This document shows, piece after piece, positions 1-31,907 of a stretch of DNA of 64,000 nt; the stretch's first letter is position 1, and every line of letters begins with the position of its first letter. The translations under genes and the position numbers were made by a program. The notes under the pieces are model-generated. The model was not told the origin of the DNA and did no database searches. It worked only from the letters and a program-made list of their open reading frames with translations. Location of the stretch: positions 2,162 through 66,161 of the forward strand of contig CAYRMQ010000003.1 in NCBI GenBank assembly GCA_964425305.1. The letters run 5' to 3'. The DNA is from an uncultured Anaerolineaceae bacterium (GTDB taxonomy: Bacteria; Chloroflexota; Limnocylindria; Limnocylindrales; CSP1-4).

Positions 1-159
1 AGCTGCCGGACGGCGTGGCGCTGCGCAGCCTGGGCGAGCACCGCCTGCGCGGGTTGCCTCACGCCATCGAGTTGCTCCAGGTCCTGGCCACCGGGCTCGA
101 CCGTGACGGGCCGGCGCTTCGCCCGACGTGAGCTGCGCCTGACGTAAGAGGGAAGGAAT

Positions 160-236
160 TGGTCGGGGCGGCCGGATTTGAACCGGCGACCCCAGCGTCC
201 CGAACGCTGTGCGCTACCAGGCTGCGCCACGCCCCG
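160..236 (-). tRNA. tRNA-Pro (anticodon CGG)
   Basis: Reverse complement folds as a canonical cloverleaf: acceptor CGGGGCG/CGCCCCG, D-arm GCGC-AGCCTGGTA-GCGC, anticodon stem CAGCG/CGCTG with loop TTCGGGA (anticodon CGG), T-arm GCCGG-TTCAAAT-CCGGC, discriminator A and encoded CCA. The plus-strand ORF 159..428 ([11 protein letters not shown]...) is a translation artefact of the tRNA. Confidence 0.85.
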
Positions 237-1803: not shown

Positions 1804-3041
1804 GCTCGCGGCCGGATGGGCAGGACGACGAGCGCGGCGACGACGTAGGCGGCGGCCATCAGCGCGAAGGTCAGCGGCAGTCCGGCCGGCTCGCCCAGAG
1901 CGTCGATGACCGAGCCATACAGCGCGACCCACAGCGAGCCGACGCCGAAGGCGAGGGTGAAGTAGGCCGCGAAGGAGGTGTCGCGCAGCTCCGGGCGCGC
2001 GATGTCCGAGAGCAGCGCCTGCAGCTGCGGGCTCTCGACGAAGTTGAAGACGCTCAGCAGCACGATCGCCAGCCACAGCGCCGGCACGTTTGAGCCGGCC
2101 ATGACGAACGCGGCCAGCGCCGCCGCGCCGGCCAGGTAGGCGCCGACGATGACGGGCTTGCGACCGATGCGGTCGGAGACCCAGCCGGCGACGACGGGGC
2201 CGGGCACGCTGCCCACCACGAGGACGGTGTACATTAGTGCGACCGTGCCGACGTCGAGGCCGACGACCACGCTTAGGTAGAGCGGCACGAAGATGTTGAG
2301 GATGCCCAGCCCGCGCCCGCCGCCGCCGATCATCGCCGAGGCGTAGACCAGCAGCAGGTTCCGGTCGCGCAGGATCGCGGCGAAGGCCGAGCGGACGTTG
2401 CCGTAGGCGCGAGCGGCGGCGCGGTCGGCGCCGGTTTCGCGGACCAGCGCCCAGATGGCCAGCGCGATAAGGATCGCCGGCACGCCGAAGAGCACGACCG
2501 TCCAGCGCCAACCCACGCCGGCGATCAGCCACGCTCCGATGAGCGGCACCGCGACGGTGCCCAGGTTGCCGCCGGCGATGTGGGCCGAGATGGCGAAGCC
2601 GCGGCGATGGACCGGGAACTGCTCGGCCAGCAGCCCGTTGCCGACCGGGTGCTGCGGGGAGCCGCCGATGCGCGAGACGACGTTGGCCAGCGAGAAGGCG
2701 CCGAAGCCCCCGGCCAGCGCCTGGGCGGCCATGCCACCGCCGAAGACGATGCCGCCGACGGCGAGGATCGAGCGCCGGCTGAACCAGCGCGTCAGCACGC
2801 TGTAGGCCAGCTGGAACATGCCCGACAGGACGTTGCCGGCCGCAGCCAGGAAGGCGATCGCCGCCGCGCCGATGCCGAACTCGGTCATGATCGCCAGGTA
2901 GACCAGCGGCAGCACCGCCGCCTGGGCGTGGTTGACAGCGTGCGCGGCGCTGAGCAGGAAGAGCGTGCGCGTGGGCCGGACGACGACGTCTGCGGATGTC
3001 GCTGCGGACGAGCGTGATCTGAGCGGGATGGCGAGGCGCAT
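1791..3041 (-). CDS. MFS transporter
   Basis: Multi-TM, glycine-rich MFS-like sequence (…GGGMAAQALAGGFGAFSLANVVSRIGG…, …DRIGRKPVIVGAYL…). The ORF-track version 1791..3578 carries an implausible non-membrane N-terminal extension, so I use the in-frame ATG at 3041 that precedes the first TM. Divergent from the SDR gene at 3099. Confidence 0.75.
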   Translation of the reverse strand: MRLAIPLRSRSSAATSADVVVRPTRTLFLLSAAHAVNHAQAAVLPLVYLAIMTEFGIGAAAIAFLAAAGNVLSGMFQLAYSVLTRWFSRRSILAVGGIVFGGGMAAQALAGGFGAFSLANVVSRIGGSPQHPVGNGLLAEQFPVHRRGFAISAHIAGGNLGTVAVPLIGAWLIAGVGWRWTVVLFGVPAILIALAIWALVRETGADRAAARAYGNVRSAFAAILRDRNLLLVYASAMIGGGGRGLGILNIFVPLYLSVVVGLDVGTVALMYTVLVVGSVPGPVVAGWVSDRIGRKPVIVGAYLAGAAALAAFVMAGSNVPALWLAIVLLSVFNFVESPQLQALLSDIARPELRDTSFAAYFTLAFGVGSLWVALYGSVIDALGEPAGLPLTFALMAAAYVVAALVVLPIRPRATPT

Positions 3042-3098
3042 GGACTCGCGGCAGCGTAGCAGCGTCGGCCGCGCGGGCAGGCCGACGCCGGTAATACC

Positions 3099-3968
3099 AT
3101 GCCGCGCATGACGGAGGAAGGAAACGTGAACGAGACGACCACGGACAGCCGCGAGCGGTGGGCCCTCATCCTTGGCGCAAGCAGCGGCTTCGGCGCCGCC
3201 GCGGCCCGCGCGCTGGCCCGTGTCGGCTACCCCATCATCGGCGTCCATCTCGACCTGCGCGCGACGAGGGCGCAGGCCGAGGCCGTCCGCGACGAGATCG
3301 CGGCAACCGGCGTGCCGGTCGTCTTCCACAACGTCAACGCCGCCGACGAGGAGAAGCGGCGCCAGGTCGTCGAGGCGACGAAGGCGCTGTTCGAGGAGCG
3401 CCGCGCGGCCGGCGCCGAGCCGTTCGTCGCCGTCTTCCTGCACTCGCTCGCCTTCGGCACGACGCTCTCCTACATCACGACCGATCCGGAGGAGCGCGAG
3501 GTCAGCCAGAAGCAGCTCGAGATGACGGCCGACGTGATGGCCCACTCGATGGTCTACTGGGTGCACGACCTGTTTCACGCCGGGCTGCTGGCCAACGGCA
3601 GCCGGCTCTTCGCGATGACCAGCGAGGGCGCCGTGCGCGTGGTCCCGACCTATGGCCCGGTCAGCGCGGCGAAGGCGGCGCTCGAGTCACACTGCCGCCA
3701 GCTCGCCCTCGAGCTGATGCCCCACGGCATCACCGTCAACGCCATCCGTGCCGGCGTCACAGACACGCCAGCGCTGCGCCGCATCCCCGGCCACCAGGGC
3801 CTGATCGACGCGGCCACCTCGCGCAATCCCGCCGGTCGGATGACGCGGCCCGAGGACGTCGGCGAGGCGCTCGTCGCGCTCGCCTCGCCGCGGTTGTACT
3901 GGATGACCGGCAACACCATCGGCGTCGACGGCGGCGAGATGATGGGCGCGCGCCGGCCGGAGGACTAG
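3099..3968 (+). CDS. SDR-family NAD(P)-dependent oxidoreductase (enoyl-reductase-like)
   Basis: N-terminal Rossmann motif GASSGFGAAAA and catalytic YGPVSAAKAAL (YxxxK); 289 aa. Confidence 0.8.
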   Translation: MPRMTEEGNVNETTTDSRERWALILGASSGFGAAAARALARVGYPIIGVHLDLRATRAQAEAVRDEIAATGVPVVFHNVNAADEEKRRQVVEATKALFEERRAAGAEPFVAVFLHSLAFGTTLSYITTDPEEREVSQKQLEMTADVMAHSMVYWVHDLFHAGLLANGSRLFAMTSEGAVRVVPTYGPVSAAKAALESHCRQLALELMPHGITVNAIRAGVTDTPALRRIPGHQGLIDAATSRNPAGRMTRPEDVGEALVALASPRLYWMTGNTIGVDGGEMMGARRPED

Positions 3969-4032
3969 AGAGGCGCCTCCCCGCCCGCCGGAGAAGGTGC
4001 CGCGGGGGCCGCCATGTGCCGGGCGCTTCTGG

Positions 4033-4192
4033 TTGGCGGGTGCCGGGTGCCCCTTCGTTGGCGGGTGCCGGGTGCCCCTTCGTTGCTGGGTGTCGGGGCG
4101 CCTCTTCGTCCGGCGGGGTCGGGCCGCCTCTCGTCCGGCGGGTGTCGGGCCGCCTCTCGTTGCTGGGTGTCGGGGCGCCTCTCGTTGCTGTC
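4033..4192. repeat. Imperfect tandem array of six 25-26 bp units (consensus about TTGGCGGGTGCCGGGTGCCCCTTCG) in the SDR/hydrolase intergenic region
   Basis: Units at about 4033, 4058, 4083, 4109, 4134 and 4160 plus a partial seventh; the first two are identical and later ones diverge. ORFs 3997..4281 and 4014..4982 merely translate the repeats. Confidence 0.6.
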
Positions 4193-4367
4193 AAAAGCGC
4201 CGAGACGGGCACACGAGGACCGGAGATTGCCCGCTCAGACCGTGCCTTTGCCCTCGCATGTGCGCTCCGTTGCACATCTGAGGGTAGGGTGGCCCGGGTT
4301 GGCGGTCGTGATGTGCCCGTGGACGCACTTCTGGCGGGAATTGCCGGTGGCGCGAGCGAGGTCTGGG

Positions 4368-4967
4368 CTACTGCTCCAGCCGCCCGGCGAAGTCGCGCAG
4401 CACCTCGACGTAGCGGCGCAGCGCGTCGAGCGACCTCGAGGCGTCACCCGGATAGGCGAGCGAATGGTCGGCGCCGTCGATCTCGAGCACCTCGCCGTGC
4501 GCGACCGAGCGCGCCACGTCGCTGTCCCACGCCGGGTCCGCGCTGCCGCCGACGAGCAGCGCGGGCATCGCCGAACGGCGGATGGCCTCGACGACGGCTG
4601 CTGCGGCCGGCCAGCGCCGGACGTTGATCAGCGGCGTGAGCCAGATGGCGGGCAGGCCACGCTCGGCGGCCAGCGGCGCGGCGAGGCTGGAGATCGACTT
4701 GCCGACGATCAGCGGACGGGTGCCCTTGCCCAGGTAGTCGAGCGCGGCGAGCGCGCGCTGCTCGACCCACGTCCGCGGTTCGGCGCCGCCGCCAAACGAG
4801 TCGCGCACAGCGACTACCGAGCGGCCGCTCGCGTTGAGGACGTCGCGCGTGAACCACAGCAGCGGCCCCTCGACCGGATAGCCGGCGCCGGGCAGCAGGA
4901 CGGCCGTGGCGGCACCGCTGCCCTCGAAGAAGTAGGCCGGGCAGATGCCCAGGTCAACCTGCTCCAT
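4368..4967 (-). CDS. alpha/beta-hydrolase fold protein (dienelactone-hydrolase-like)
   Basis: 199 aa with nucleophile-elbow-like GKSIS and a C-terminal Asp/His region. Confidence 0.65.
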   Translation of the reverse strand: MEQVDLGICPAYFFEGSGAATAVLLPGAGYPVEGPLLWFTRDVLNASGRSVVAVRDSFGGGAEPRTWVEQRALAALDYLGKGTRPLIVGKSISSLAAPLAAERGLPAIWLTPLINVRRWPAAAAVVEAIRRSAMPALLVGGSADPAWDSDVARSVAHGEVLEIDGADHSLAYPGDASRSLDALRRYVEVLRDFAGRLEQ

Positions 4968-4982
4968 CGCCCACGACGGTAG

Positions 4983-7592
4983 CTATGGCGTCAAGCTCAG
5001 GCTGTACCAGCGCGCGGCCTCGACCGCCTCGCGCGTGAACGGCAGCGGCAGCGGCGCGTTGCCCAGCCAGCGCTCGATGAGGTCCTCGTAGTGAGCGTCG
5101 AAGGGCAGCCCGGACTGGCCGGTGGCATGCAGGATCGTCGCGCCGTCGAGGTCGCTCATCTCGATGACCAATCGGTAGGACGGGTGGCTGGTGGCGGCGA
5201 AGACCCGGCGCAGGTCTGCCGGGCCATCGTCGGCGGCGGGGTACTCGCGGGTGATCGGCCCGCAGATCTTGTTGACGATCGTGCACGAGCCGGGTGCCGC
5301 GAACGGGCCGCGGTTGAAGATTGCCTCCAGCGGACCGATACCCGAGCGACCGAAGGTCTCCTCGGTGAGCGTCACGGTGTGGATCCGCCCCCAGCTCCAG
5401 TTGGGCGGGTCGCCGAGCGTGTGGCGCAGGTCGGCGCCCGCCTCGTCGAGGGCGCGCGCGATGATCGCGTCACGGTCCTCGCGCACGGCCGTCGTCGTGT
5501 CGTCCCACCAGCCGTTGTCGGGTTGGGCGAGCAGGCGGACGACTGCCTCGTGCGACGGCTCGCTGCCGACGTACCATCGGATGAGAGTTCCCGGGCCATC
5601 CCGCTCGGCCAGCTCGTCGTCGAAAACGCCGCGCAGCAGCCGGTAGGTGAAGGACTCGTAGGCGGCACAGCCGATGGAGGCCACGCCGCAGCGCAGGTCG
5701 GTCCGCCAGTCGCGGATGCGGTCGCGGACGAGACGACCGTCGGCCGTCTCGGGCGACGCGCCGGCGACCGCCTCGATGACCGGGCGCGCGCGGGTCAGCG
5801 CGACGTCGGCCTGCATCGTCCGCAGTTCGTCGGCCGTCACCGGCGCAAGCTGCTCGAGCAGCTCGAGGGCACGCTCGGCGCGGTAACCCGGGTCCCAGTC
5901 GCGGCCGAGGTGATGCCCGTAGCCGGCGTCGGTGGGCGCGTTGTTGGCCGTCACGATGAGGCCGCTGGGCGGGTCGAGGACAGACGGCAGCTCGTCGAAG
6001 GCGACCCAGCCGGTCCAGTCATGGCTGCCGTCCTCACCGGGTGAGGGCACCGACCCGTCGCCCGCCGCGCGCAGCGGGATCCGGCCGGGGACCTGCAGGC
6101 CGATGTGGCCGTCGACGTCGGCGTAGAGGAACGCCTGCGAGGGCGCCACGAAGTCGCGCAGGGCGTTGCGGAACTCGGTCCAGTTGGCGGCTCGGTTGAC
6201 GCCAAGCACGGCGTCGAAGGTCCGGTCGGGCTCCATGATCGACGGCCAGGCGAGGGCGTAGGCGTGGCCGGCGCGGCCGAGTCCCTCGCCGCCGGCATCC
6301 CGCTCGCGCAGCTCGCCGGCGACGTCGCTGAGCAGCGGCCCGTGCACGCTGCGCCGGATGGTGACCGTCTCCTCCTCACCGCCGGCGATACGGATGGTTT
6401 CGTCGCGCACGTCGAACGGAACGCTGCGACCACGGTGGAGGTAGTGGCCGGCGCGCCGCGGGTCGAGCGTCTCCTCGAACAGGTCCTGAACGTCCGGGCC
6501 GAGGTTGGTCAGGCCCCAAGCGATGCGTGCGTTGTGCCCGAGGACGATGCCCGGCACGCCGGGGAAGCCGGCGCCGACCACGTCGTACGGACACTCGCGG
6601 CCGACCGGCTCGCAGTGCAGGCCGACGAGGTACCAGAGAGATGGGATCGACATGCCGAGATGCGGATCGTTGGCCAGCAGCGCAGCCCCCGTCGCCGACC
6701 GCGCCGGCGCCACCGCCCAGCCGTTCGACCCGAGCCCCGCCGCGTCGAGGCCTGCCCCGGCGGCGGGATCGAGCCGCGCCAGCAGCCGCTCGTTCAGCTC
6801 GAGCAGCGGAAGGAGCGCATCGCCGCCTGTGGCGGCCGGCGGCGACGCTCGCCGGCCGGGCGCCGGCCGCGCCAGCTCGCTCGTGCCCACGATGATCGGT
6901 CGCCCCGCATCGTAGTCGGGCAGCAGCTCGGCGATGGCCGCCTCGGACAGGCCGCGCTCGGCCAGCGCCGAGCGGAACACCTCCGCGCTCCACGTCCCGC
7001 CGAGCGACCAGGCCATGACCTTGACCCAGGTGAGGCTGTCGACGGCCGTCCACGGCTCGGGCCGGTAGCCGGCGAGGCCGCCGCCGGCGCCGAGCAGGCC
7101 GGCGACGACGAACTGCAGCGGCAGGTCGCCGTGCTGGTCCAGCCAGGCGTTGACCCCCTCGGCGTATGCCTCGAGGGCGAGGCGGGCAGGAGGTGACATG
7201 GCCGACACGTCGGCCTCGGCGGCAGGGCGCCAGCCGAGGGTGCGGATGAAGCGGTCCGTCTCGACCTCGCTGGCGCCGAAGATCTCGGCCAAACGGCCGG
7301 CCCCGACGCGGCGCCAGACCTCCATCTGCCACATCCGCTCGCTGGCGTGGACGTAGCCCTGGGCGGCGAACAGGTCACGCGCGGAGGCGGCGTAGACGTG
7401 CGCCACGCCGGCCGAGTCGCGCATCACCGTCACCTCGGCGGCGAGGCCTGGCAGGCGCACCGTGCCGTCGCGCTCCGGGAAGCTGCGCACGATGATCCAG
7501 CCGAGCAGCCCGCCGCCTACCAGTGCCGCGATCAAGAGCACGATCAGCGCGGTGCTGAGCAGGCTCTGTAGCGCACCGAACAGCCGGCTCAC
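4983..7592 (-). CDS. penicillin-acylase family Ntn-hydrolase (penicillin amidase / acyl-homoserine-lactone acylase-like), N-terminal TM/signal
   Basis: 869 aa. The autoproteolytic beta-subunit N-terminus GLGSNGWAV (Ser-Asn-x-Trp) and family-typical spacing are present; N-terminal hydrophobic segment. Confidence 0.85.
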   Translation of the reverse strand: MSRLFGALQSLLSTALIVLLIAALVGGGLLGWIIVRSFPERDGTVRLPGLAAEVTVMRDSAGVAHVYAASARDLFAAQGYVHASERMWQMEVWRRVGAGRLAEIFGASEVETDRFIRTLGWRPAAEADVSAMSPPARLALEAYAEGVNAWLDQHGDLPLQFVVAGLLGAGGGLAGYRPEPWTAVDSLTWVKVMAWSLGGTWSAEVFRSALAERGLSEAAIAELLPDYDAGRPIIVGTSELARPAPGRRASPPAATGGDALLPLLELNERLLARLDPAAGAGLDAAGLGSNGWAVAPARSATGAALLANDPHLGMSIPSLWYLVGLHCEPVGRECPYDVVGAGFPGVPGIVLGHNARIAWGLTNLGPDVQDLFEETLDPRRAGHYLHRGRSVPFDVRDETIRIAGGEEETVTIRRSVHGPLLSDVAGELRERDAGGEGLGRAGHAYALAWPSIMEPDRTFDAVLGVNRAANWTEFRNALRDFVAPSQAFLYADVDGHIGLQVPGRIPLRAAGDGSVPSPGEDGSHDWTGWVAFDELPSVLDPPSGLIVTANNAPTDAGYGHHLGRDWDPGYRAERALELLEQLAPVTADELRTMQADVALTRARPVIEAVAGASPETADGRLVRDRIRDWRTDLRCGVASIGCAAYESFTYRLLRGVFDDELAERDGPGTLIRWYVGSEPSHEAVVRLLAQPDNGWWDDTTTAVREDRDAIIARALDEAGADLRHTLGDPPNWSWGRIHTVTLTEETFGRSGIGPLEAIFNRGPFAAPGSCTIVNKICGPITREYPAADDGPADLRRVFAATSHPSYRLVIEMSDLDGATILHATGQSGLPFDAHYEDLIERWLGNAPLPLPFTREAVEAARWYSLSLTP

Positions 7593-8243: not shown

Positions 8244-9632
8244 TCAGAACGCCTCGAGGTAGCGCTCCACCTCCCACGTCGTGACCTGCGTGCGGTACTC
8301 GTCCCACTCCTGCCGCTTGGCCTCGATGAAGTGCGACAGGACGTGGTCGCCGAGCGCCTCGCCGATGACCTCGTCGCGCTCGAGCTCGTCGATCGCCTCG
8401 CCGAGCGTGCCGGGCAGCTCGCGGATGCCGCGCTCGCGGATGCGGTCGGCATCCATCGCGTAGAGGCTCTCCTCCACCGGCTCCTCCAGCGTCAGGCCCT
8501 TCTCGACGCCGTCGAGGCCGGCGGCGAGCATCGCCGCGAAGGCGAGGTAGGTGTTCGACGAGGGATCCGGGCAGCGCACCTCGATACGCGTCGCCTCGAT
8601 GCTGCGCCCGGGCGAGGCCTTCGGCACGCGGATCAACGCCGAGCGGTTGGTCCGGCCCCACGTCAGGTAGGTCGGGGCCTCGTAGCCCGGCACCAGCCGC
8701 TTGTAGCTGTTTACCAGCGGCGCCAGCACGGCGATCATGCCACGGGCGTGGGCGAGGATGCCGGCCATGTAGCTGCGCGCCAGGTCGGAGAGGCCGTACT
8801 GGTTCGTCTCGTCGGCGAAGGCGTTGCGCTCCTCGGCGATCGAGAAGAGGCTCTGGTGGGTATGCATGCCCGAGCCGTTGATGCCGAAAATCGGCTTGGG
8901 CATGAACGTGGCGTACAGCCCATGCAGCTGGGCGATCGCCTTCAGCGTGAACTTGAAGGTGATCGCGTTGTCGGCCGTGCGCAATCCGTCGGCGTACTGG
9001 AAGTCGATCTCGTGCTGGCCCGGCGCGACCTCGTGGTGGGCGGCCTCGACGCGGATGCCGAACGACTCGAGGGCGTTGACCATGTCCTGGCGCACTTCCT
9101 GCGCCAGGTCAGTCGAGAAGTCGAAGTAGCCGGCCTGGTCGTGGGGCAGCGGCTGGATTTCGCCGTCGGCCGTCCGCCGGAAGAGGAAGAACTCCAGCTC
9201 GGGGCCGGTGTTCCAGACGTAGCCCAGCTTGCGTGCGCGCTCCATCTGGCGCTTAAGCACGAAGCGCGGGTCGCCCGGGAAGGGCTCACCCTTCGGCGTG
9301 TAGACGTCGCAGATGACGCGGGCCGTGCCGCGGCTGCCCAGCGGGCCCCCGCCAAGGTTGCCGTGGCCGGGCTGCCACGGGATTTCGGCGAAGGTGTCCA
9401 TGTCCGGCTTCAGGTACTGGTCGCTCTCGGCGATGCGCGTGAAGCCCTCGACCGAGCTGCCGTCGAACCACGTGCCGTGCTCGACCGAATCGGCGAGCTG
9501 GTGAAGCGGGATGGTGACGCTCTTGACGGACCCGATGATGTCGGTGAACTGGAGCTGGACGAAGCGGATGTTGTGCTCCTTGGCCGCCTCGATCTTCTCC
9601 AGGGCGCTCTTCTCGCCGAGCTCCATGACCAT
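8244..9632 (-). CDS. glnA: glutamine synthetase type I
   Basis: Full-length GSI homology including …KPIFGINGSGMHTHQS… and …NSYKRLVPGYEAP…. The start is taken at the ATG preceded by GGAGGAAG (MVMELGEK…). Confidence 0.9.
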   Translation of the reverse strand: MVMELGEKSALEKIEAAKEHNIRFVQLQFTDIIGSVKSVTIPLHQLADSVEHGTWFDGSSVEGFTRIAESDQYLKPDMDTFAEIPWQPGHGNLGGGPLGSRGTARVICDVYTPKGEPFPGDPRFVLKRQMERARKLGYVWNTGPELEFFLFRRTADGEIQPLPHDQAGYFDFSTDLAQEVRQDMVNALESFGIRVEAAHHEVAPGQHEIDFQYADGLRTADNAITFKFTLKAIAQLHGLYATFMPKPIFGINGSGMHTHQSLFSIAEERNAFADETNQYGLSDLARSYMAGILAHARGMIAVLAPLVNSYKRLVPGYEAPTYLTWGRTNRSALIRVPKASPGRSIEATRIEVRCPDPSSNTYLAFAAMLAAGLDGVEKGLTLEEPVEESLYAMDADRIRERGIRELPGTLGEAIDELERDEVIGEALGDHVLSHFIEAKRQEWDEYRTQVTTWEVERYLEAF

Positions 9633-23194: not shown

Positions 23195-23213
23195 TGGTCG
23201 GGGCGGCGGGATT
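23195..23213. repeat. 19-nt direct repeat of the tRNA-Pro(TGG) 3' end (TGGTCGGGGCGGCGGGATT), immediately after the methyltransferase stop
   Basis: Identical to 23699..23717 (acceptor/T-stem/CCA end of the tRNA); the two copies bracket 485 bp. Confidence 0.6.
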
Positions 23214-23698: not shown

Positions 23699-23774
23699 TG
23701 GTCGGGGCGGCGGGATTTGAACCCGCGACCTCGTGCTCCCAAAGCACGTGCGCTAGCCACTGCGCCACGCCCCG
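23699..23774 (-). tRNA. tRNA-Pro (anticodon TGG)
   Basis: Cloverleaf on the reverse complement: acceptor CGGGGCG/CGCCCCG, D-arm GCGC-AGTGGCTA-GCGC, anticodon stem CGTGC/GCACG with loop TTTGGGA (anticodon UGG), T-arm GCGGG-TTCAAAT-CCCGC, discriminator A, CCA encoded. The plus ORF 23698..23907 is an artefact. Confidence 0.85.
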
Positions 23775-24996: not shown

Positions 24997-25932
24997 TTGC
25001 GCGGCTATGCTGCCGGCGTGCGCATCGGCATCACCATCCCCGTCGCCGAGGATGAGGACTACCGGGCAAAGCCGTTCAGTGACCTGCGCCAGCTGGCGCT
25101 GACGGCCGAGGCCGCCGGCCTGGATTCGATCTGGGCCGCCGATCACCTGCTCTACCAGCCGGGGTTCGACCGCCCGCGCGGCTTCTGGGAGTCGTGGACG
25201 CTGCTGTCGGCGCTGGCCGAGGCGACCCAGCGCGTCGAGCTGGGCCATCTCGTCGCCTGCGTGCCCTTCCGTAACGCGGGCCTGACCGCGTACATGGCCA
25301 ACACGATCGACGAGATCAGCGACGGACGGTTCGTGCTGGGCCTGGGCTCGGGCTGGCACGAGCCGGAGTTCCGCGCCTTTGGCTTCGAGTTCGACCGCCG
25401 CGTCAGCTACTACGCGGAGTCGCTGGCGGTCATCGTGGCGCTGCTGCGCGGCGAGGCGGTCGCCTTCTCGGGCGAGCTCGTCGAGGGGCACGCGACGCTG
25501 AGTCCGCGCGGGCCGCGGCCCGACGGCCCACCGATCCTGACCGCTTCCAGGGGGCCGCGGATGCACCTGCTGTCGGCGCAGTACGCCAATCGCTGGAACA
25601 CGGCCTGGTACGGCCTGCCGGCGCAGCCCTTCTGGGAGCGACGCGATGGCCTTCACGCTGCCTGTGCGGAGGCCGGCCGCGACCCGGCCGAGATCGAGGT
25701 CAACATCGGACTGAGCGTCGTCGACGCAGCGGAGATTGACGACATGGACGCCAGCCGCGTGCTGGTCGCCGAACCGACAGCCATCTCCGACGGCCTCGCC
25801 GCGTGGCGCGAGCAGGGCGTCGCCGAGGTGATGTGCAATCTCCGCCCGGCCACTCCGGAGATGGTCGAGCGCGTCGCCCGCGCGGCCGAGACACTGCGCG
25901 CGGGAGCCCCGGCTGCGGCGACCGACTTTTAG
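24997..25932 (+). CDS. LLM-class (luciferase-like) flavin/F420-dependent oxidoreductase
   Basis: …IWAADHLL…, …GRFVLGLGSGWHEPEF… typical of the LLM family; TTG start in the track, alternative GTG at 25018 (VRIGITIP…). Confidence 0.75.
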   Translation: MRGYAAGVRIGITIPVAEDEDYRAKPFSDLRQLALTAEAAGLDSIWAADHLLYQPGFDRPRGFWESWTLLSALAEATQRVELGHLVACVPFRNAGLTAYMANTIDEISDGRFVLGLGSGWHEPEFRAFGFEFDRRVSYYAESLAVIVALLRGEAVAFSGELVEGHATLSPRGPRPDGPPILTASRGPRMHLLSAQYANRWNTAWYGLPAQPFWERRDGLHAACAEAGRDPAEIEVNIGLSVVDAAEIDDMDASRVLVAEPTAISDGLAAWREQGVAEVMCNLRPATPEMVERVARAAETLRAGAPAAATDF

Positions 25933-25976
25933 AGAGTCTTGAGAATCGTTGAAGCCAGCCGGCCTAGCCTGCCGGC

Positions 25977-28900
25977 ATGTTCCTCGACAGCGTCCGCGGG
26001 CCAAGGCCAGGGCTCCAGGCGGTTGAACCACCGGCGTATGCTCGCGGGGTGCAGATCGGCGTGTTGGGGACGCTCGAAGCGCACACCGACGGCGTCTCTG
26101 TTCGGTTAGGGGGGCCGAAACAGCGGACGGTCCTGGCAATCCTGGTTGCCGAGGGGGGACGGTCGGTTCCGATCGACCGTCTCGTCGATCTCGTTTGGGG
26201 CGAGGAGCCGCCGACGGGCGCCAGGAGCACGCTTCACACCTACATCTCGAATCTGCGTGCCGCGCTTGGCGACGTCGTCGTGCGCGACGGCGGTGGCTAT
26301 CGCCTCGACCTGCCGCGGGAGGCAGTCGACGCGTTTCGCTTCGAGGACGACGTTGCGCGCGCCAGGGAGACAAGAGATTCGCAGCCACTGGAGGCGGCTC
26401 AGCGGTTGCGGGAGGCGCTGAAGTTGTGGCGGGGTCGGCCGTATGCCGACGTGTCCGACTCGCCTTTCCTGGAGCAGGAGGCCCGGCGCCTGGAGGAGCT
26501 GCGCTTGACGGCCATCGAGAACCGCGTCGACGCCGAGCTGGCGCTGGGCAACCACGCCGAGCTGGTCGGTGAGCTCGAGGTGCTCACGGCCGAGAATCCT
26601 CTGCGCGAGCACCTGCGCGCGGCGCACATGCTGGCGCTGTACCGTGCGGGTCGCCAGGCGGAGGCGCTTCGCGCCTACCATAAGACGCGCACGCTGCTGG
26701 CCGAGGAGCTGGGCATCGATCCCTCGCCCGCCCTGCAGGAGCTCGAGGGCAAGATCCTGCGCCAGGACCACTCGCTCGACCTGGAGAGCGAGCCTCGCGT
26801 CGAGACGCTCGTCTTCCTGCTGTCCGACATCGAGGACTCAACCGTCCTGTGGGAACTGCACCAGCGCGAGATGGGTCCTGCCGTGGCGCTGTACGACGCG
26901 ATCGTCAGCGAGGCGGTCGAGGGAGCTGGCGGACGAGTGGTCAAGCGCGTGGGCGACGGCCTCGACGCCGTGTTCTCTGACGCGGGCGGCGCGGTGGTCG
27001 CCGCGCGTGAGGCGCAGCGGGCGCTGCAACGGGGGACCTGGGGCGAAACGGGTCCGCTCAAGGCTCGCATGGCGATCGATGTCGGCGAAGTAGAGGCGCG
27101 AGGAGGTGGATACTTCGGCCCTGTCCTCAATCGCTGCGGTCGGATCCTGGCCTCCGGTCACGGCGGGCAGATCCTTCTCTCGGCCGAGGCGCATGCCGCG
27201 CTGTCGGGCGCGCAGGCGGGCTGGCAGGTCCGCGCACTGGGCGAGTTCCGCTTCAAGGGCCTGGGCCGTCCGCAACGCGTCTTCCAGCTACTGGTTGACG
27301 ACCTGCCGACGGAGTTTCCCGAGCTGCGCATCGACCGACTGCCGGCGACGGCCAGGATCAGCGTCGAGCGAGCCGTGCGGGGCTACGAGCTGCGCGAGCA
27401 GGTGGGAGGGGGAGACTTCGGCGTCGTTTACCGCGCCTACCAGCCGGCGGTCGGCCGCGAGGTGGCGGTCAAGGTCATTCGGCCCGAGTTCGTCAATCAG
27501 CCCTCCTTCGTGCGCCGCTTCGAGAGCGAAGCGCAGATGGTGGCCCAGCTCGAGCACCCCCACATCGTGGCGCTCTACGACTACTGGCGGGATCCCGATG
27601 GCGCTTACCTTGTCATGCGCTGGCTGCGCGGGGGCGCGCTGAGTGACGCGCTCGATCGCGGACCCTGGCACCTCGAGCCGGCTTCACGGCTGCTGGCGCA
27701 GGTCGGCTCGGCTCTCGCCTACGCCCATCGCCAGGGGATCGTGCATCGCGACCTCAAGCCGGGCAACGTGCTGCTCGACGAGGAGGGCAACGCCTACCTG
27801 TCGGACTTCGGCGTGGCGGCGCGCCTGGTCGACGCATCCGAGTCGGGTCGGCCGGTCTCCTCGTCGCCCGCCTATGTGACACCCGAGGAGCTGCGGGGCG
27901 AGCCGCTGCGCGCGCCGTCGGACATCTTCGCGCTGGGGCTGCTTACGTTCGAGTTGCTCTCTGGTCGCCGCCCACCGATGGACCGCTCCCTCCCCTCGCT
28001 CAGGCGGCTGCGACCAGAGCTGCCCGAAGGAATCGACGAGATCATCGCTCGCGCGACGGCCGATCAACCGGCGGCCCGCTACTCAACGGTGGACGGGTTC
28101 CTGGCAGCGTTCCTCGACGTGCTGGGCCAGGCTCCGGTGGCCGAGGAAGCCGGCTTCACGCCAACACGCAACCCGTACAAGGGGCTGCAGGCCTTCAGCG
28201 AGTTCGACGAGCAGGACTTCCATGGTCGGCAGGGGTTGATCGAGGAGCTGACCGAAGCGCTCAAGAAGCACCGTTTCCTGGCCGTCGTGGGGCCCTCGGG
28301 CATCGGCAAGTCATCTGTCGTGCGCGCTGGGCTGGTGCCGGCGCTACGCGCCGGCGCGTTGCCCGGATCCCGTGATTGGCTGGTAACCGACATGTTCCCC
28401 GGCTCCTATCCCTTCGAGGAGCTGGAGGCCGCGTTGCTGCGCATAGCCGTCGAGCGCCCGGTGGGCATGACCGAGGATCTGGCTCGGGACGAACGCGGCA
28501 TCCTGCGCGTCAGCAAGCGCATCCTGCCGACCAGCGCGCAGGCGATGCTCGTCATCGACCAGTTCGAGGAGCTGTTCACGCTGACCTCCGACGAGGAGAC
28601 GCGCCGGCTTTTCCTCGATGCGCTCGCCACACTGGTCACCGACCCGCGTTCCAGGATGCGCGTGGTCATCACCCTGCGCGCTGACTTCTTCGACCGTCCC
28701 CTGCGCTACCGAGCCTTCGGGGACCTGCTGCGTGACAGGATGGTAGCCGTCACCGCGCCCGGCGAAGGAGAGCTGACTGCCGCCATCGTCAGGCCGGCGG
28801 AGGCCGTTGGCGTGCGCTTCGAGGCCGGTCTCGTCGACCGCATCATCACTGACGTCAGTAGTCAGCCGGGCGCACTGCCGCTGCTGCAGTATGCGCTGAC

Positions 28901-31900
28901 CGAGCTCTTTGCCTCGCGCACCTCCGACCTGCTGACCGTTCACGGCTACCAGGCTTCGGGGCGCGTGCTGGGCGCGCTTGGACGACGGGCTGAGGAGCTC
29001 TACGAGTCGCTCGATGAGGATGGCCGAGAGGCCGCTCGGCAGGTGTTCCTGCGCCTGGTGGCAGTCAGCGAGGTGGGCGAGGACACGCGCCGGCGCGTCC
29101 GCCACCAGGAGCTCGACGCGCTGGGAGTGGATGCGCTGACTCTCGACGAGGTGCTGCGCCGATACGGCGAGTACCGGCTGCTGACCTTCGATCGCGACCC
29201 GCTGACCCGCGGGCCCACGGTGGAAGTGGCCCACGAGGCGCTGCTGACCGAGTGGCATCGGCTGCGCGACTGGATCGCCGAGCGGCGTGAGGACCTGCTG
29301 CTCCAGAGACGCCTGGCCGATGCCCTTGGCGAGTGGGAGCAGGCCGGCCGGGATGCCTCATACCTGCTGAGCGGCGGGCGGCTGCAGCAGTTCGCCGCCT
29401 GGGCGGACGGCACCGACCTTGCCTTGACCACCCAAGAGCGCGAGTACCTGCACGACAGCGAGGCTGCCGAGGCAGAGCGCAGGCGCCTCCAGCGGCGCCG
29501 GCGGCGAGCCATCATGGCCGGCTTCGGCGCAGCCGCAGCCCTGTCGCTGGTCCTCGCTGCGGTCGCATATCTCAACGAACGCCAAGCGCTGCACAACGAG
29601 CAGCTGGCGCACGCTCGAGAGCTGGCCGCAGCGGCGATCAGCGTCCGCGACACCGATCCTGAACTGAGCATCCTCCTGTCGATCGCGGCGCACGAGGCGG
29701 CGCCCGACGGCGAGGCGCCGCCGCGCGAAGTCGTGTCAGTCCTCCACCAGACGGTCCGCTCCAGCCGGATGCTTGTCAGCCGGCCGTGGGAGGCTGACTT
29801 CGGGCTCAGCTGGTCGCCACTGGGCGGCTCGTTGAGTCCTGACGGGACGCTGGTCGCCGCCAGCGGCTGGTCCGACACTCTGCAGGTGTGGGACGCAGCC
29901 ACCGGCGAGGTGCGCTGGGAGCTGCGGGACGATGAGAGCGGCGGCTGGTTCTGGTGGCCCCAGTTCAGCCCGGACGGCTCAAGGCTGGTGGTGGCCTTCA
30001 GCCGCTACTGGGAAGAAGGCCGCCGAGTCGACGGCGGCCTGGCCGCCGGCATCTACTTCTTCCACTCGCGCAACGGGGAGTTGTTGGACATGCTGCCGCC
30101 GCCGACGGAATGCGACTGGGTTGGAATGGCGGGACCTAATGCACTCAGCCTCGACGGCAACCACCTGATCCGCCTGGTCGATCGAGGCGGCGAAGACCCC
30201 GAGACGGGGTGTTACTCCTACGAAGGGCCTGAGAACAACCCCCTGGCGACGCGGGAACTCGAGGTAGTCGATATCCGTACGCTCGAAGTCGTCTATCGCA
30301 CCGACGTGACCTACCCGTACGGCGAGAACCGCGGCCATGGGCAGGCGGGCGTGGACATCGCCGGCAACCGGCTGATCGTGGGAGACCTGTCCGGTGATCA
30401 TGGAACGACGCGCATGATCGACCTCGTCGACGGCAGCGTGCTCTGGGAAAGGGCGGCTGTCGGCGGCTTTCTCAGTCCCGATGGCTCGGTGGCGGCGCTG
30501 GCCGGCGGCGGCGCAGCCCAGCGGCGTATCGAGCTCGTCGATCCTGCGACGGGCGACCTACTGGGCGAGCTGGTTGGCCACAGAGCGCATACCGACGCCG
30601 TGGTCTTCAGCCGCGACGGCCGGCTCGCCTACTCGGCAGGCATGGACGGGACGGCTCGGGTGTGGGACGTGGCCACTGGCGAGAACCTGCTGACCCTCGG
30701 TGGTGACAAGCAAGGCTTGATATCTCTGTCGCCGGACGAAAGTGGCGCGAGATTGGCCACATTCGGGTTCGACGGCAACACCCGGATGTGGGACCTGACC
30801 GCGCAGCCCCTGACCGAGGTGGGGACCGCGATCGATCTGCGCCCCGCGCAGGTCGCCCTAAGGGGCATCATGGCAAGCGGTGGTCTGGCGACTGTCGCCG
30901 GTTTCCTTGGAGAATGCCCCGACCAGGAAGGGTTCTCCATCGTCTTCAATGCCGAGACCGGCACGACCATGCGACGCTTCACCGACTCGGCCGGCCAGAT
31001 GGAGGCGTTGCTACCCGACGGTACGGGCGTCCTCCACCAGCTGCTTGTGCTGTACGGGCCGGAGATCAGCTGCGCCGACGAGATCCTTGGCCCGCTCGTC
31101 ATCCGCGATCTGACGAGCGGCGAGACACGCATCGAGCTGGAGGGCTGGTGCGAGTGGGCGGATCCCGGCGACTGCGCCTCCCCGCCTGAAGTGCCGTACG
31201 CCGACTTCGTAAACGCACTGGCCGTGTCCGATGACGGGAGAATTGCCGTCGCCGGTGGCCCCAGCGGTGCGGCGTCGATCTGGGACGTGCACGAAGGCTC
31301 CCTGCACGGGACGATAGGACCATTCCAGGGTGAGGGGTGGATCCAGGGCGTCGCCGTCCACCCGGACGGGAGAACCGCGGTCGTAACCAGCTCTGAGGCC
31401 CTTTACATCGTGGACCTCGACAGTGCGCTGAACATACGGCAGGAGCTGCGGAGTCACCACGGCTTCGTCGCCTTCAATCCCGGTGGATCACTGCTCGCCG
31501 TTGGCGAACCCCGCCTGACGATGTACCGAACCGAGGATTGGGAGGTCATGTGGGAGGTGGATGCTCACGATGGCGGGGTTCCCCACCTCGGCTTCAGCCC
31601 GGACGGGACTGCCCTCGTGACCACCGGCCCGGACGGCTTCGTGCGCCTGTGGAGCGCGACTGACGGCAACCTGCTGCAGGTCGTTCCACTGGGCGACGAT
31701 TGGGCCAAGGCGGTGGCCTTCGTCAACGAGCGGCACGTGCTCATAGGTACGTCCAATGGCCTGGTGGTCGGCCTCACCTTCGACGTCGACGAGCTCGTCG
31801 AGATCGGCCGCTCCCGGGTGACTCGTTCGCTGACCGATCAGGAGTGCCGGACGTACCTGCGCATCGACGAGTGCCCGTCAGACATGGAGACGACCGCGTC

Positions 31901-31907
31901 TCAGTAG
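25977..31907 (+). CDS. 1976-aa multidomain signalling protein: SARP wHTH+BTAD / class III nucleotide cyclase / Ser-Thr protein kinase / STAND P-loop NTPase / single TM helix / WD40 beta-propeller
   Basis: Single uninterrupted ORF. Approximate domain coordinates: SARP 26049..26771 (…YRLDLPREAVDAFRFEDDV…, BTAD …ELRLTAIENRVDAELALGNHAELVGELE…); cyclase 26799..27311 (FLLSDIEDST, KRVGDG, GPVLNRCGRI); kinase 27378..28136 (GGGDFGVVY, VAVK, HRDLKPGNVLL, DFG); NTPase 28164..28976 (NPYKGLQAFSEFDEQDFHGRQ, Walker A GPSGIGKSS, Walker B MLVIDQFEE); TM 29508..29573 (AIMAGFGAAAALSLVLAAVAYL); WD40-like repeats 29769..31904. Confidence 0.85.
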   Translation: MFLDSVRGPRPGLQAVEPPAYARGVQIGVLGTLEAHTDGVSVRLGGPKQRTVLAILVAEGGRSVPIDRLVDLVWGEEPPTGARSTLHTYISNLRAALGDVVVRDGGGYRLDLPREAVDAFRFEDDVARARETRDSQPLEAAQRLREALKLWRGRPYADVSDSPFLEQEARRLEELRLTAIENRVDAELALGNHAELVGELEVLTAENPLREHLRAAHMLALYRAGRQAEALRAYHKTRTLLAEELGIDPSPALQELEGKILRQDHSLDLESEPRVETLVFLLSDIEDSTVLWELHQREMGPAVALYDAIVSEAVEGAGGRVVKRVGDGLDAVFSDAGGAVVAAREAQRALQRGTWGETGPLKARMAIDVGEVEARGGGYFGPVLNRCGRILASGHGGQILLSAEAHAALSGAQAGWQVRALGEFRFKGLGRPQRVFQLLVDDLPTEFPELRIDRLPATARISVERAVRGYELREQVGGGDFGVVYRAYQPAVGREVAVKVIRPEFVNQPSFVRRFESEAQMVAQLEHPHIVALYDYWRDPDGAYLVMRWLRGGALSDALDRGPWHLEPASRLLAQVGSALAYAHRQGIVHRDLKPGNVLLDEEGNAYLSDFGVAARLVDASESGRPVSSSPAYVTPEELRGEPLRAPSDIFALGLLTFELLSGRRPPMDRSLPSLRRLRPELPEGIDEIIARATADQPAARYSTVDGFLAAFLDVLGQAPVAEEAGFTPTRNPYKGLQAFSEFDEQDFHGRQGLIEELTEALKKHRFLAVVGPSGIGKSSVVRAGLVPALRAGALPGSRDWLVTDMFPGSYPFEELEAALLRIAVERPVGMTEDLARDERGILRVSKRILPTSAQAMLVIDQFEELFTLTSDEETRRLFLDALATLVTDPRSRMRVVITLRADFFDRPLRYRAFGDLLRDRMVAVTAPGEGELTAAIVRPAEAVGVRFEAGLVDRIITDVSSQPGALPLLQYALTELFASRTSDLLTVHGYQASGRVLGALGRRAEELYESLDEDGREAARQVFLRLVAVSEVGEDTRRRVRHQELDALGVDALTLDEVLRRYGEYRLLTFDRDPLTRGPTVEVAHEALLTEWHRLRDWIAERREDLLLQRRLADALGEWEQAGRDASYLLSGGRLQQFAAWADGTDLALTTQEREYLHDSEAAEAERRRLQRRRRRAIMAGFGAAAALSLVLAAVAYLNERQALHNEQLAHARELAAAAISVRDTDPELSILLSIAAHEAAPDGEAPPREVVSVLHQTVRSSRMLVSRPWEADFGLSWSPLGGSLSPDGTLVAASGWSDTLQVWDAATGEVRWELRDDESGGWFWWPQFSPDGSRLVVAFSRYWEEGRRVDGGLAAGIYFFHSRNGELLDMLPPPTECDWVGMAGPNALSLDGNHLIRLVDRGGEDPETGCYSYEGPENNPLATRELEVVDIRTLEVVYRTDVTYPYGENRGHGQAGVDIAGNRLIVGDLSGDHGTTRMIDLVDGSVLWERAAVGGFLSPDGSVAALAGGGAAQRRIELVDPATGDLLGELVGHRAHTDAVVFSRDGRLAYSAGMDGTARVWDVATGENLLTLGGDKQGLISLSPDESGARLATFGFDGNTRMWDLTAQPLTEVGTAIDLRPAQVALRGIMASGGLATVAGFLGECPDQEGFSIVFNAETGTTMRRFTDSAGQMEALLPDGTGVLHQLLVLYGPEISCADEILGPLVIRDLTSGETRIELEGWCEWADPGDCASPPEVPYADFVNALAVSDDGRIAVAGGPSGAASIWDVHEGSLHGTIGPFQGEGWIQGVAVHPDGRTAVVTSSEALYIVDLDSALNIRQELRSHHGFVAFNPGGSLLAVGEPRLTMYRTEDWEVMWEVDAHDGGVPHLGFSPDGTALVTTGPDGFVRLWSATDGNLLQVVPLGDDWAKAVAFVNERHVLIGTSNGLVVGLTFDVDELVEIGRSRVTRSLTDQECRTYLRIDECPSDMETTASQ

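Follow-up and report, generated by a model that had tools for sequence, protein, structure and literature searches.

A putative single-pass transmembrane receptor that combines SARP, cyclase, kinase, STAND NTPase and WD40 modules in one polypeptide

What might a bacterium do with one protein that carries a DNA-binding regulator, a nucleotidyl cyclase, a protein kinase, a STAND NTPase and a long array of WD40 repeats? The question is raised by a 1976-codon open reading frame (ORF) that starts with ATG and occupies positions 25977..31907 of a 64-kb stretch of DNA from an uncultured Anaerolineaceae bacterium (contig CAYRMQ010000003.1; hereafter the window, meaning the whole 64,000 nucleotides analysed). 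The gene and all the features of it given below lie on the forward (+) strand. An earlier note on this DNA had reported a single ORF of this length, start and position, which agrees in every particular with our reading, and had ordered its modules as SARP, class III cyclase, Ser/Thr kinase, STAND NTPase, transmembrane (TM) helix and WD40, a list and order that Pfam and NCBIfam models, a profile search and structural modeling uphold. Our favored reading, to which we assign a rough probability of 0.52, is that the product is a single-pass transmembrane receptor with a whole signaling pathway in one polypeptide and an autoregulated transcriptional output.

The ORF encodes 1976 amino acids followed by a stop codon, and its treatment as one gene is based on the frame, the codon bias and full-length homologues. 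The in-frame third-position GC content (GC3) is 0.78–0.90 in all of its 150-codon blocks, with no frame break, and such uniformity in one frame over 1976 codons gives no sign of a frameshift or gene join. A whole-protein search returned more than 120 clusters (at 90% identity) of proteins 1850–2000 residues long and 47–57% identical to ours over 91–99% coverage. The earlier note had left the recurrence of the full fusion to an architecture search across genomes; the fusion does recur, in all of these clusters, with no conserved neighborhood. The clusters derive from NCBI, JGI, ENA and Logan assemblies, nearly all of uncultured soil Actinomycetota, and the named carriers are Micromonospora sp. 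MS34, the sole cultured one, along with Acidimicrobiia, Thermoleophilia and Gaiellaceae metagenome-assembled genomes (MAGs). When one genome per species was scanned, 32 had the family's cyclase segment; they belong to Gaiellales, Thermoleophilia, Acidimicrobiia and other Actinomycetota, nearly all of them uncultured, and some have two copies. The existing database names are automatic (“BTAD domain-containing putative transcriptional regulator”, “nSTAND1 domain-containing NTPase”). In eight loci from long-read MAGs (L004, L005, L007, L009, L010, L012, L031 and L032) the homologue is split into two or more ORFs, which could reflect sequencing frameshifts or pseudogenes, and in two loci a second giant-protein-like region lies upstream of the main copy (L026, approximately 2500–6200; L007, approximately 3850), which suggests tandem paralogues in some genomes.

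The N-terminus has the layout of the SARP family, an OmpR-type winged helix followed by a bacterial transcriptional activation domain (BTAD). Its winged-helix DNA-binding domain covers aa 25–112 (26049..26312) with the recognition helix ARSTLHTYISNLR, and is assigned from Pfam Trans_reg_C, which scores 33.4 bits over aa 46–110 against a cut-off of 26.2, and from the AfsR structures; the BTAD covers aa 117–261 (26325..26759), with 155 bits in Pfam and homology to AfsR and EmbR. In the Pfam/NCBIfam scan, a model of the AfsR N-terminus covers aa 12–271 with 210 bits. Among solved structures, those of AfsR (8hvr, 8k60) match with E=1e-53, aa 10–267 aligning with AfsR 12–269 and the match ending at aa 267, and the homology of this part to EmbR has E=4e-46.

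Directly behind it, aa 274–442 (26796..27302) form a class III nucleotidyl cyclase catalytic domain, assigned from a profile, a structural model and the residues D284, D327, K323, N385, R389 and K427. Of the domain annotations expected in the earlier note, those by Trans_reg_C, BTAD, Pkinase and WD40 models held, as did the NTPase in the form of nSTAND1, whereas Guanylate_cyc gave 20.5 bits in the window protein, below its gathering score of 21.9; the relatives tested pass it with 28.6–37.1 bits, and the window domain is rescued by the profile and the model. A profile of aa 262–462, built from 19 family members and searched against solved structures, matched GRESAG4.1 of Trypanosoma brucei (E=1e-22) and, over the whole domain, Ma1120 of Mycobacterium avium (E=4e-22), with further matches to Rv1900c (E=5e-10) and CyaB (E=2e-7). 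AlphaFold predicted the segment with a mean local confidence score (pLDDT) of 89.7, and the best structural matches to the model were Ma1120 chains, with a TM-score of 0.94 (normalized to Ma1120), a root-mean-square deviation of 1.2 Å and 32% identity. Sequence profile and predicted model together confirm that the cyclase homology domain fold is present. In 47 full-length relatives, the set used for all conservation counts below, D284 and D327 are conserved in 44/47, K323 in 42/47, N385 in 46/47, R389 in 47/47 and K427 in 44/47. From established knowledge of class III cyclases, we take D284 and D327 to bind metal, N385 and R389 to be the transition-state pair and the lysines to serve in phosphate binding and in the Lys/Asp specificity pair. 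The Asp of that pair, seven residues before the catalytic Asn, is present in 42/47 relatives and is Gly378 in the window protein (codon 27108–27110; GGGYFG for GGDYFG), a Gly found in just 2/47. Judged from the alignment, the nucleotide specificity of this copy could be altered or relaxed, or its activity reduced.

Two further enzymatic modules complete the N-terminal half. A Hanks-type Ser/Thr kinase spans aa 469–725 (27381..28151), with 158 bits for Pfam Pkinase over aa 470–668 and 213 bits for an NCBIfam PknB-type model over aa 470–725. Its key residues are K499, E516, H590-R591-D592, N597 and D610-F611-G612; K499, E516, H590, D592, N597, D610 and F611 are kept in 41–47 of the 47 sequences, and the HRD arginine is replaced by Gly in 18 of them. 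The NTPase, aa 733–1127 (28173..29357), matches the nSTAND1 model PF20703 with 399 bits over profile positions 1–378 of 379. The three motifs that the earlier note had pointed out are all there and invariant in the 47 homologues: NPYKGL..F..GR at aa 732–751, Walker A GPSGIGKSS at 772–780 and Walker B VIDQFEE at 859–865, including the Walker A lysine K778 and the Walker B acidic residues D861, E864 and E865. The same note had linked this type of NTPase to conflict and signaling systems, which agrees with its placement in nSTAND1, a clade named in conflict systems (PMC8195603). With these residues in place, both kinase and NTPase look catalytically competent. A search of the PDB by sequence found no solved relative of the NTPase segment beyond the P-loop. 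Near the end of nSTAND1 there is also an invariant VAHEAL motif (aa 1083–1088, nt 29223–29240, containing H1086-E1087), which by analogy may be the counterpart of the MHD or His-Asp activation switch of AfsR.

On which side of the membrane does the rest of the protein lie? A single TM helix is predicted at aa 1177–1199 (29505..29573), with a Kyte-Doolittle value of 2.2 and a RRRLQRRRRR cluster just before it. This helix is present in 47/47 homologues, 19–23 residues long with Kyte-Doolittle values of 2.1–2.9 (mean 2.5), its sequence identity being just 46%, and in the homologue set the net charge within 12 residues of it is +6 on the N-terminal and +1 on the C-terminal side. After the TM helix come a juxtamembrane three-helix segment (aa 1200–1262, 29574..29762; model helices 2–24, 29–42 and 51–62), predicted to be extracytoplasmic, tandem WD40-type beta-propellers (aa 1265–1934, 29769..31778), assigned from Pfam, the model, Foldseek and cysteine co-occurrence, and a helical C-terminal tail (aa 1937–1976, 31785..31904) with a near-invariant cysteine pair, C1957/C1966, in the motif TRSLTxxECRxYLxxxxCP. 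Pfam WD40 scores 86.5 bits in four stretches, alongside many other beta-propeller models. AlphaFold predicted aa 1200–1976 (777 residues) with a pLDDT of 81.9 and a predicted TM-score of 0.80 as three helices, 56 strands and two terminal helices; 56 strands would make approximately 14 blades, most simply two seven-bladed propellers, and Foldseek matched the model to tandem WD40 propellers, Apaf-1 and Aip1. The structure prediction proposed in the earlier note has thus been carried out for the cyclase and for this C-terminal part, and both models show the folds assigned. At the DNA level no internal repeats of the kind seen in fungal HET-type NLRs were found in the WD40 region.

The cysteines are distributed just as unevenly as the charges. 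In the window protein a single one falls within the first 1159 residues and eight within the last 762, and the C-terminal count is even in 46/47 homologues. The pairs in the putative ectodomain of the window protein are 1379/1412, 1647/1699 and 1725/1733: positions 1379 and 1412 co-occur in 20/20 sequences, and C1733, present in 38 sequences, is accompanied by a cysteine in one or the other of two neighboring columns (20 + 18). C1957 and C1966 are present in 43 and 47 sequences, respectively, and in the homologue alignment the cysteines of the cytoplasmic part are unpaired singles. Together, the TM helix, the positive-inside charge and the co-occurring cysteine pairs place the propellers outside the cytoplasm, so that a disulfide-bonded, N-in/C-out ectodomain is the most likely arrangement. 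The sensor region is 25% identical across the family, as against 63–70% for the cytoplasmic modules. The elements of a receptor-type bacterial Ser/Thr kinase (PknB/PknD/PknH-like) are all found in order (kinase, TM helix and sensor, the kinase predicted to lie inside and the sensor outside), but an NTPase of approximately 450 residues stands between kinase and TM helix. In the canonical STAND/NLR layout sensor and NTPase share one compartment; here a conserved, predicted TM helix appears to come between them.

If the winged helix is the output domain of such a receptor, what DNA would it bind? Aligning the upstream regions of the family revealed an element of the form TGGAGNN-N4-TGGAGNN-N8-TANNNT, with the consensus TGGAGCGTTTCTGGAGCG-N8-TACGGT. 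It occurs 31 times in the 1.12 Mb of sequence fetched, where 0.02 occurrences are expected from base composition, and lies upstream on the coding strand in 27/32 family loci; of the five loci without it, three have no upstream sequence and two, from Acidimicrobiia, have a TTGATNN variant. In 14 loci the element stands directly before the gene, and the gap between -10 and ATG is 6–7 nt in 13 of these and 11 nt in one. A gap of 6–7 nt indicates a leaderless transcript, and supports the ATG at 25977 as the true start. SARP promoters, as set out in PMC10936776, contain direct repeats spaced with a period of 11 or 22 bp, the 3′ one standing 8 bp from the -10, and the geometry of the family element, 7+4+7+8+TANNNT, is the same as that rule in the form given there. 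The association is reciprocal: a scan of metagenomes with the DNA element alone yielded 46 contigs, and of 18 boxes for which over 1.5 kb lay downstream, 14 are followed on the same strand, within 2.5 kb, by the SARP gene of this family. Recognition helix and box appear to vary together: STLQTYV is paired with TGGAGCG heptamers, and STLHTYI with TGGAGAA and with TTGAGAA of the window.

Upstream of the giant gene itself we find a putative SARP-dependent leaderless promoter at 25930..25976, identified by reading the sequence and by a pattern scan. Three repeats with a 10-nt period, TAGAGAG (25930), TGAGAAT (25940) and TGAAGCC (25950), are followed by 8 nt (agccggcc), a -10 element TAGCCT (25965–25970), 6 nt (gccggc) and the ATG. 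The pattern TKRAR-N5-TKRAR-N11-TANNNT occurs once in the 64 kb and in 0/100 shuffles, no other SARP box was found in the window, and a canonical copy of the element is found in the window protein's second-closest relative. From these comparisons the window element is probably a degenerate autoregulatory site. A generic sigma-70 promoter scan found nothing, and its terminator-like matches, inside the ORF, were at chance level; a SARP-type element, which lacks a -35, would be the actual signal where that scan gave none.

Boxes that do not adjoin the receptor gene precede a gene for a small protein with a signal peptide, which usually lies between the box and the receptor gene (L002 8531, L007 8628, L010 8560, L012 8400, L016 8517, L017 4177 and L032 8428, and in the metagenome loci L037–L082). 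The box-driven proteins belong to at least three unrelated families of 150–180 aa, plus a BNR-repeat protein and a beta-lactamase-fold protein. Searches of Pfam and of PDB sequences gave no match for the three small secreted families; families A and B share (G/S)TGxFAGAxGSG, with a faint likeness to dirigent proteins (E about 1). These small secreted proteins may serve as ligand, as co-receptor or as output; the window itself encodes no box-driven secreted protein. In Micromonospora sp. MS34 (L019; receptor protein WP_412819734.1), three boxes flank the receptor gene, including those at 8774 and 15216; the upstream one precedes a 104-aa secreted protein, and one past the gene precedes a 518-aa secreted BNR/Asp-box protein.

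A search with aa 1–465, for which we consider the best 150 representatives of clusters at 50% identity, shows how the front end of the protein is used elsewhere. SARP and cyclase form one contiguous stretch in 150/150 of them, and at least 65 are 1770–2110 aa long and have the full architecture. A second group of approximately 1150–1320 aa includes soluble SARP-cyclase-AAA_16/22-TPR (MalT) proteins of approximately 1170 aa (P0201, P0230); P0148 (1323 aa), also in this group, is a truncated copy of the full architecture. Because the SARP-cyclase stretch is contiguous and coupled to two STAND-type back ends, we regard the didomain as an evolutionary unit. One protein, P0212 (1535 aa), has the form SARP-cyclase-SARP-AAA_16.

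These observations can be combined into a scheme in which we infer the ligand, oligomerization, enzyme activities, DNA binding and order of events. Approximately 1176 N-terminal residues, comprising SARP, cyclase, kinase and nSTAND1, would be cytoplasmic, one helix would span the membrane, and the C-terminal 777 residues, a three-helix stalk plus a disulfide-containing double propeller of approximately 14 blades, would form the ligand sensor outside. Ligand on the propellers would act through the TM helix on the STAND module, which would exchange its nucleotide and oligomerize, as other STAND/NLR switches do, thereby juxtaposing the N-terminal modules of adjacent protomers. SARP domains could then sit side by side on the direct repeats of the gene’s own leaderless promoter, the repeats standing in for a -35, and recruit RNA polymerase; this would amount to positive autoregulation, and in many relatives would also drive the intervening small secreted protein. 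The cyclase domains, as obligate dimers, would form active sites upon proximity, and the kinase domains would trans-phosphorylate, fusing in cis the logic by which AfsK acts on AfsR and PknH on EmbR. Since SARP, cyclase and kinase each need a partner, induced proximity would activate all three, and cyclic nucleotide (cNMP) and phosphorylation outputs are both possible. Some steps have precedents: according to PMC10936776, the NOD and TPR parts of AfsR inhibit its SARP domain, ATP binding relieves that inhibition, and the SARP domain binds DNA as a side-by-side dimer, and in Actinomycetota a WD40 propeller at the surface acts as a sensor whose signal goes to a Ser/Thr kinase and a response at the level of transcription (PMC13622651). 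In its fullest version the scheme makes the protein a transmembrane NLR-like receptor with an outer repeat sensor, one polypeptide reaching from extracellular ligand to its own promoter with cNMP and phosphorylation as side outputs and, in many relatives, an autoregulated operon with a small secreted protein; we hold this more specific version tentatively, at slightly short of even odds.

Several other explanations have to be set against the receptor. That separate genes were joined into this ORF by a chimeric assembly or a frameshift error we consider to have a negligible probability: we found nothing in its favor other than that some relatives in long-read MAGs are split into pieces, while the codon bias is uniform in one frame through all 1976 codons, 16 intact ORFs are present among the fetched genomic loci, and more than 120 clusters from independent assemblies (NCBI, JGI, ENA, Logan) share the architecture from end to end. 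Together, the 91–99% coverage of these clusters and the codon bias refute it. Another view would have the hydrophobic segment not span a membrane at all, leaving a soluble, cytosolic STAND protein with WD40 sensors in the manner of Apaf-1. The tandem propellers of Apaf-1 do align with our C-terminal model in Foldseek, and STAND proteins characterized to date are, as a matter of general knowledge, cytosolic; against this stand a hydrophobicity kept in 47/47 homologues despite 46% sequence identity, a strong positive-inside charge bias, and paired, covarying cysteines that are confined to the C-terminal side, and we judge a soluble protein very improbable. Still, the topology is based on hydropathy, charge and cysteine statistics, which we count among the points that tell against the receptor reading, together with the following: the literature search found no characterized precedent for a STAND switch worked across a membrane; the window element is degenerate, with three repeats at a 10-nt rather than 11-nt period and TGAGA/TGAAG in place of TGGAG; the apparent covariation of recognition helix and box comes from few independent lineages and is confounded by phylogeny; no conserved partner or target genes are visible in the window; with Gly378 in place of the specificity Asp, the cyclase output of the window copy is uncertain; nSTAND1 was defined in predicted conflict systems (PMC8195603); and a fast-evolving sensor would fit an arms race as well.

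The last two points lead to a different function, that of an NLR-like conflict protein in immunity or cell suicide, in which the WD40 part would sense an invader, kinase and cyclase would be effectors, and the SARP would raise a transcriptional alarm. The N-terminal effectors of the predicted counter-invader systems in which nSTAND1 is named do include S/T/Y kinases (PMC8195603), Actinomycetota employ a WD40 sensor at the surface against epibionts (PMC13622651), and such a role would suit the divergence of the sensor (25% identity, versus 63–70% for the rest), the want of syntenic context, the variable copy number (two in some MAGs) and a GC3 of 0.83, below the 0.86–0.96 of the neighbors. It sits less well with neighbors that are housekeeping genes (rdgB, rph, mazG, the luciferase-like oxidoreductase and the metallophosphoesterase), with PADLOC matches to a generic kinase domain only, and with a conserved output element that serves as promoter of the gene and of small secreted proteins rather than of a toxin; kinase, cyclase and SARP are not typical death effectors, and because the membrane would separate sensor from NTPase, the sensor could not see intracellular phage proteins. 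Judged by its neighbors, the synteny comparison and PADLOC, the window nSTAND1 protein does not show the defense context, death-type effector or effector-associated domain by which membership in counter-invader systems is recognized. A conflict role is disfavored next to the receptor and on the whole rather unlikely. Somewhat less unlikely, if still doubtful, is a modification of the receptor reading in which the cyclase, perhaps together with the kinase, would act chiefly as a module for structural dimerization or regulation, at least in the window copy, and SARP-dependent transcription would be the sole output. Here the replacement by G378 of an Asp found in 42/47 relatives, the score of the window cyclase under the Pfam cut-off and the inheritance of the SARP-cyclase pair as a unit in two architectures, which fits a pairing of DNA-binding SARP dimers, have to be balanced against the retention of the metal-binding Asp residues, the Asn/Arg pair and the Lys residues in 42–47 of 47 sequences, residues that pseudo-enzymes usually lose. 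The window copy is without the specificity Asp alone, and the catalytic residues of the kinase are likewise kept.

How does such a receptor compare with known systems? AfsR of Streptomyces coelicolor, a “large SARP” with the layout SARP-NB-ARC(NOD)-TPR, is homologous over the N-terminal 270 residues (E=1e-53) and resembles our protein in placing a SARP under a STAND-type NTPase with a repeat sensor, in the 8-bp distance that separates direct repeats from the -10 of its target promoters (here the putative ones), and in its association with a Ser/Thr kinase, AfsK, which here is in cis. It differs in having NB-ARC instead of nSTAND1 and TPR instead of WD40, with no sensor beyond a TM helix and no cyclase and kinase inserted between SARP and NTPase, and the window protein is approximately twice as long. 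In the PknH-EmbR pair of Mycobacterium, and in AfsK-AfsR, a kinase whose sensor lies outside the cell and is joined through a TM helix to a Hanks domain in the cytoplasm acts on a SARP regulator (EmbR structure, 2fez), and AfsK has C-terminal repeats of the beta-propeller type; in both pairs, however, kinase and SARP are two proteins and there is no cyclase, whereas here one protein holds both, with the STAND module between kinase and membrane. The soluble proteins P0201 and P0230 share the contiguous SARP-cyclase didomain, followed not by kinase, nSTAND1, TM helix and propeller but by a MalT-type ATPase-TPR module; they are close to the SARP-LAL class (PimR, SanG, FilR) of the SARP literature.

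Among STAND proteins, the nSTAND1 conflict proteins (Kaur, Burroughs, Iyer, Aravind 2021) have an NTPase of the same clade, an N-terminal enzymatic domain and C-terminal repeats; unlike them, our protein has a TM helix that parts sensor from NTPase, an N-terminal transcription activator and a non-defense context. Apaf-1, one of the best matches by structure for the C-terminal model, likewise has a STAND NTPase followed by tandem WD40 propellers, but is cytosolic, with a CARD effector and NB-ARC and without TM helix, DNA-binding, cyclase or kinase domains. ToxR and CadC, in which a cytoplasmic OmpR-type winged helix, one TM helix and an extracytoplasmic sensor make up one-component transmembrane gene control, have the same tethered layout, with the DNA-binding domain near the membrane and no enzymatic or NTPase modules. 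The Esr threat-sensing pathway of Actinomycetota (PMC13622651) also joins an extracellular WD40-class sensor to a Ser/Thr kinase, transcriptional remodeling and secreted outputs, but does so with multiple proteins (MoxR, vWA, FHA and separate kinases) and without STAND, SARP or cyclase, and the two are not homologous as wholes. Finally, the class III adenylyl cyclases Ma1120, Rv1900c and GRESAG4 have the same catalytic fold and residues as the window cyclase, which is at most 32% identical to them and has K323/G378 instead of the Lys/Asp pair.

The genomic context of the window gene is a housekeeping one, neither a defense island nor a biosynthetic cluster: a metallophosphoesterase and a luciferase-like oxidoreductase are upstream on the same strand, and rdgB, rph, mazG and a PpiC-type isomerase are downstream and convergent. 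A tblastn search with nine window neighbors against 33 related loci gave no match, clustering of flanking ORFs yielded no conserved partner (the largest non-self clusters were antisense shadows of the giant gene), and in the window PADLOC reported generic kinase models only. The giant gene has a GC3 of 0.83 and a GC content of 0.67–0.70, whereas the flanking genes have 0.86–0.96 and 0.71–0.75, respectively, a difference that would fit either lower expression or transfer from another lineage. A tRNA-Pro(tgg) gene lies 2.2 kb upstream at 23699–23774 on the reverse (-) strand, and an exact 19-nt copy of its 3′ end (23699–23717), TGGTCGGGGCGGCGGGATT, is found at 23195–23213, 504 nt from the tRNA. 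Between the two is a 43-nt direct repeat (23432 and 23503, 91% identical), and the arrangement looks like an att-type remnant of an integrated element; the interval has no ORF with coding-type codon bias. We considered an origin of the giant gene in a tRNA island and rejected it: the gene lies 5′ of the tRNA, and the sole tRNA-end repeat bounds the 504-nt remnant on the opposite side. At the window’s edge, tblastn weakly links 12–179 (+) with the linker and kinase start of two relatives (E=6e-4, 38% over 68 aa); the match may be fortuitous, or a further kinase-type gene may have its edge there.

The earlier note did not recognize the combination as a described architecture, and our search of open-access text bears that out. 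SARP reviews list only small, medium, large and SARP-LAL classes (PMC10972967; bioRxiv 10.64898/2026.09.02.748808), and we found no description of the architecture in open-access SARP classifications, nSTAND1 papers or a 2026 survey of prokaryotic STANDs, nor, in the same literature, of a self-targeting SARP box combined with a STAND switch that seems to work across a membrane. Each of the modules, and each link between two of them, is known already; the combination is undescribed in that literature. To our knowledge, STAND/NLR switches have been seen as sensors in the cytosol, and SARPs as soluble, pathway-level regulators of antibiotic genes. If the receptor reading is true, both would be parts of a membrane receptor, the kinase-to-SARP relation of AfsK-AfsR and PknH-EmbR would be hard-wired in cis with a cyclase added, and the logic of receptor kinase, NLR and one-component regulator would be merged in an unstudied soil Actinomycetota family with a predictable DNA target. 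The SARP-type promoter before the gene makes the DNA-binding output concrete, the family could be used to test whether STAND-oligomer proximity drives three outputs at once, and Micromonospora sp. MS34, the one cultured carrier, offers an experimental entry point. This would be relevant to bacterial signaling, NLR evolution and actinomycete regulation, and the conserved promoter element would provide a testable readout for what uncultured soil Actinomycetota sense outside the cell.

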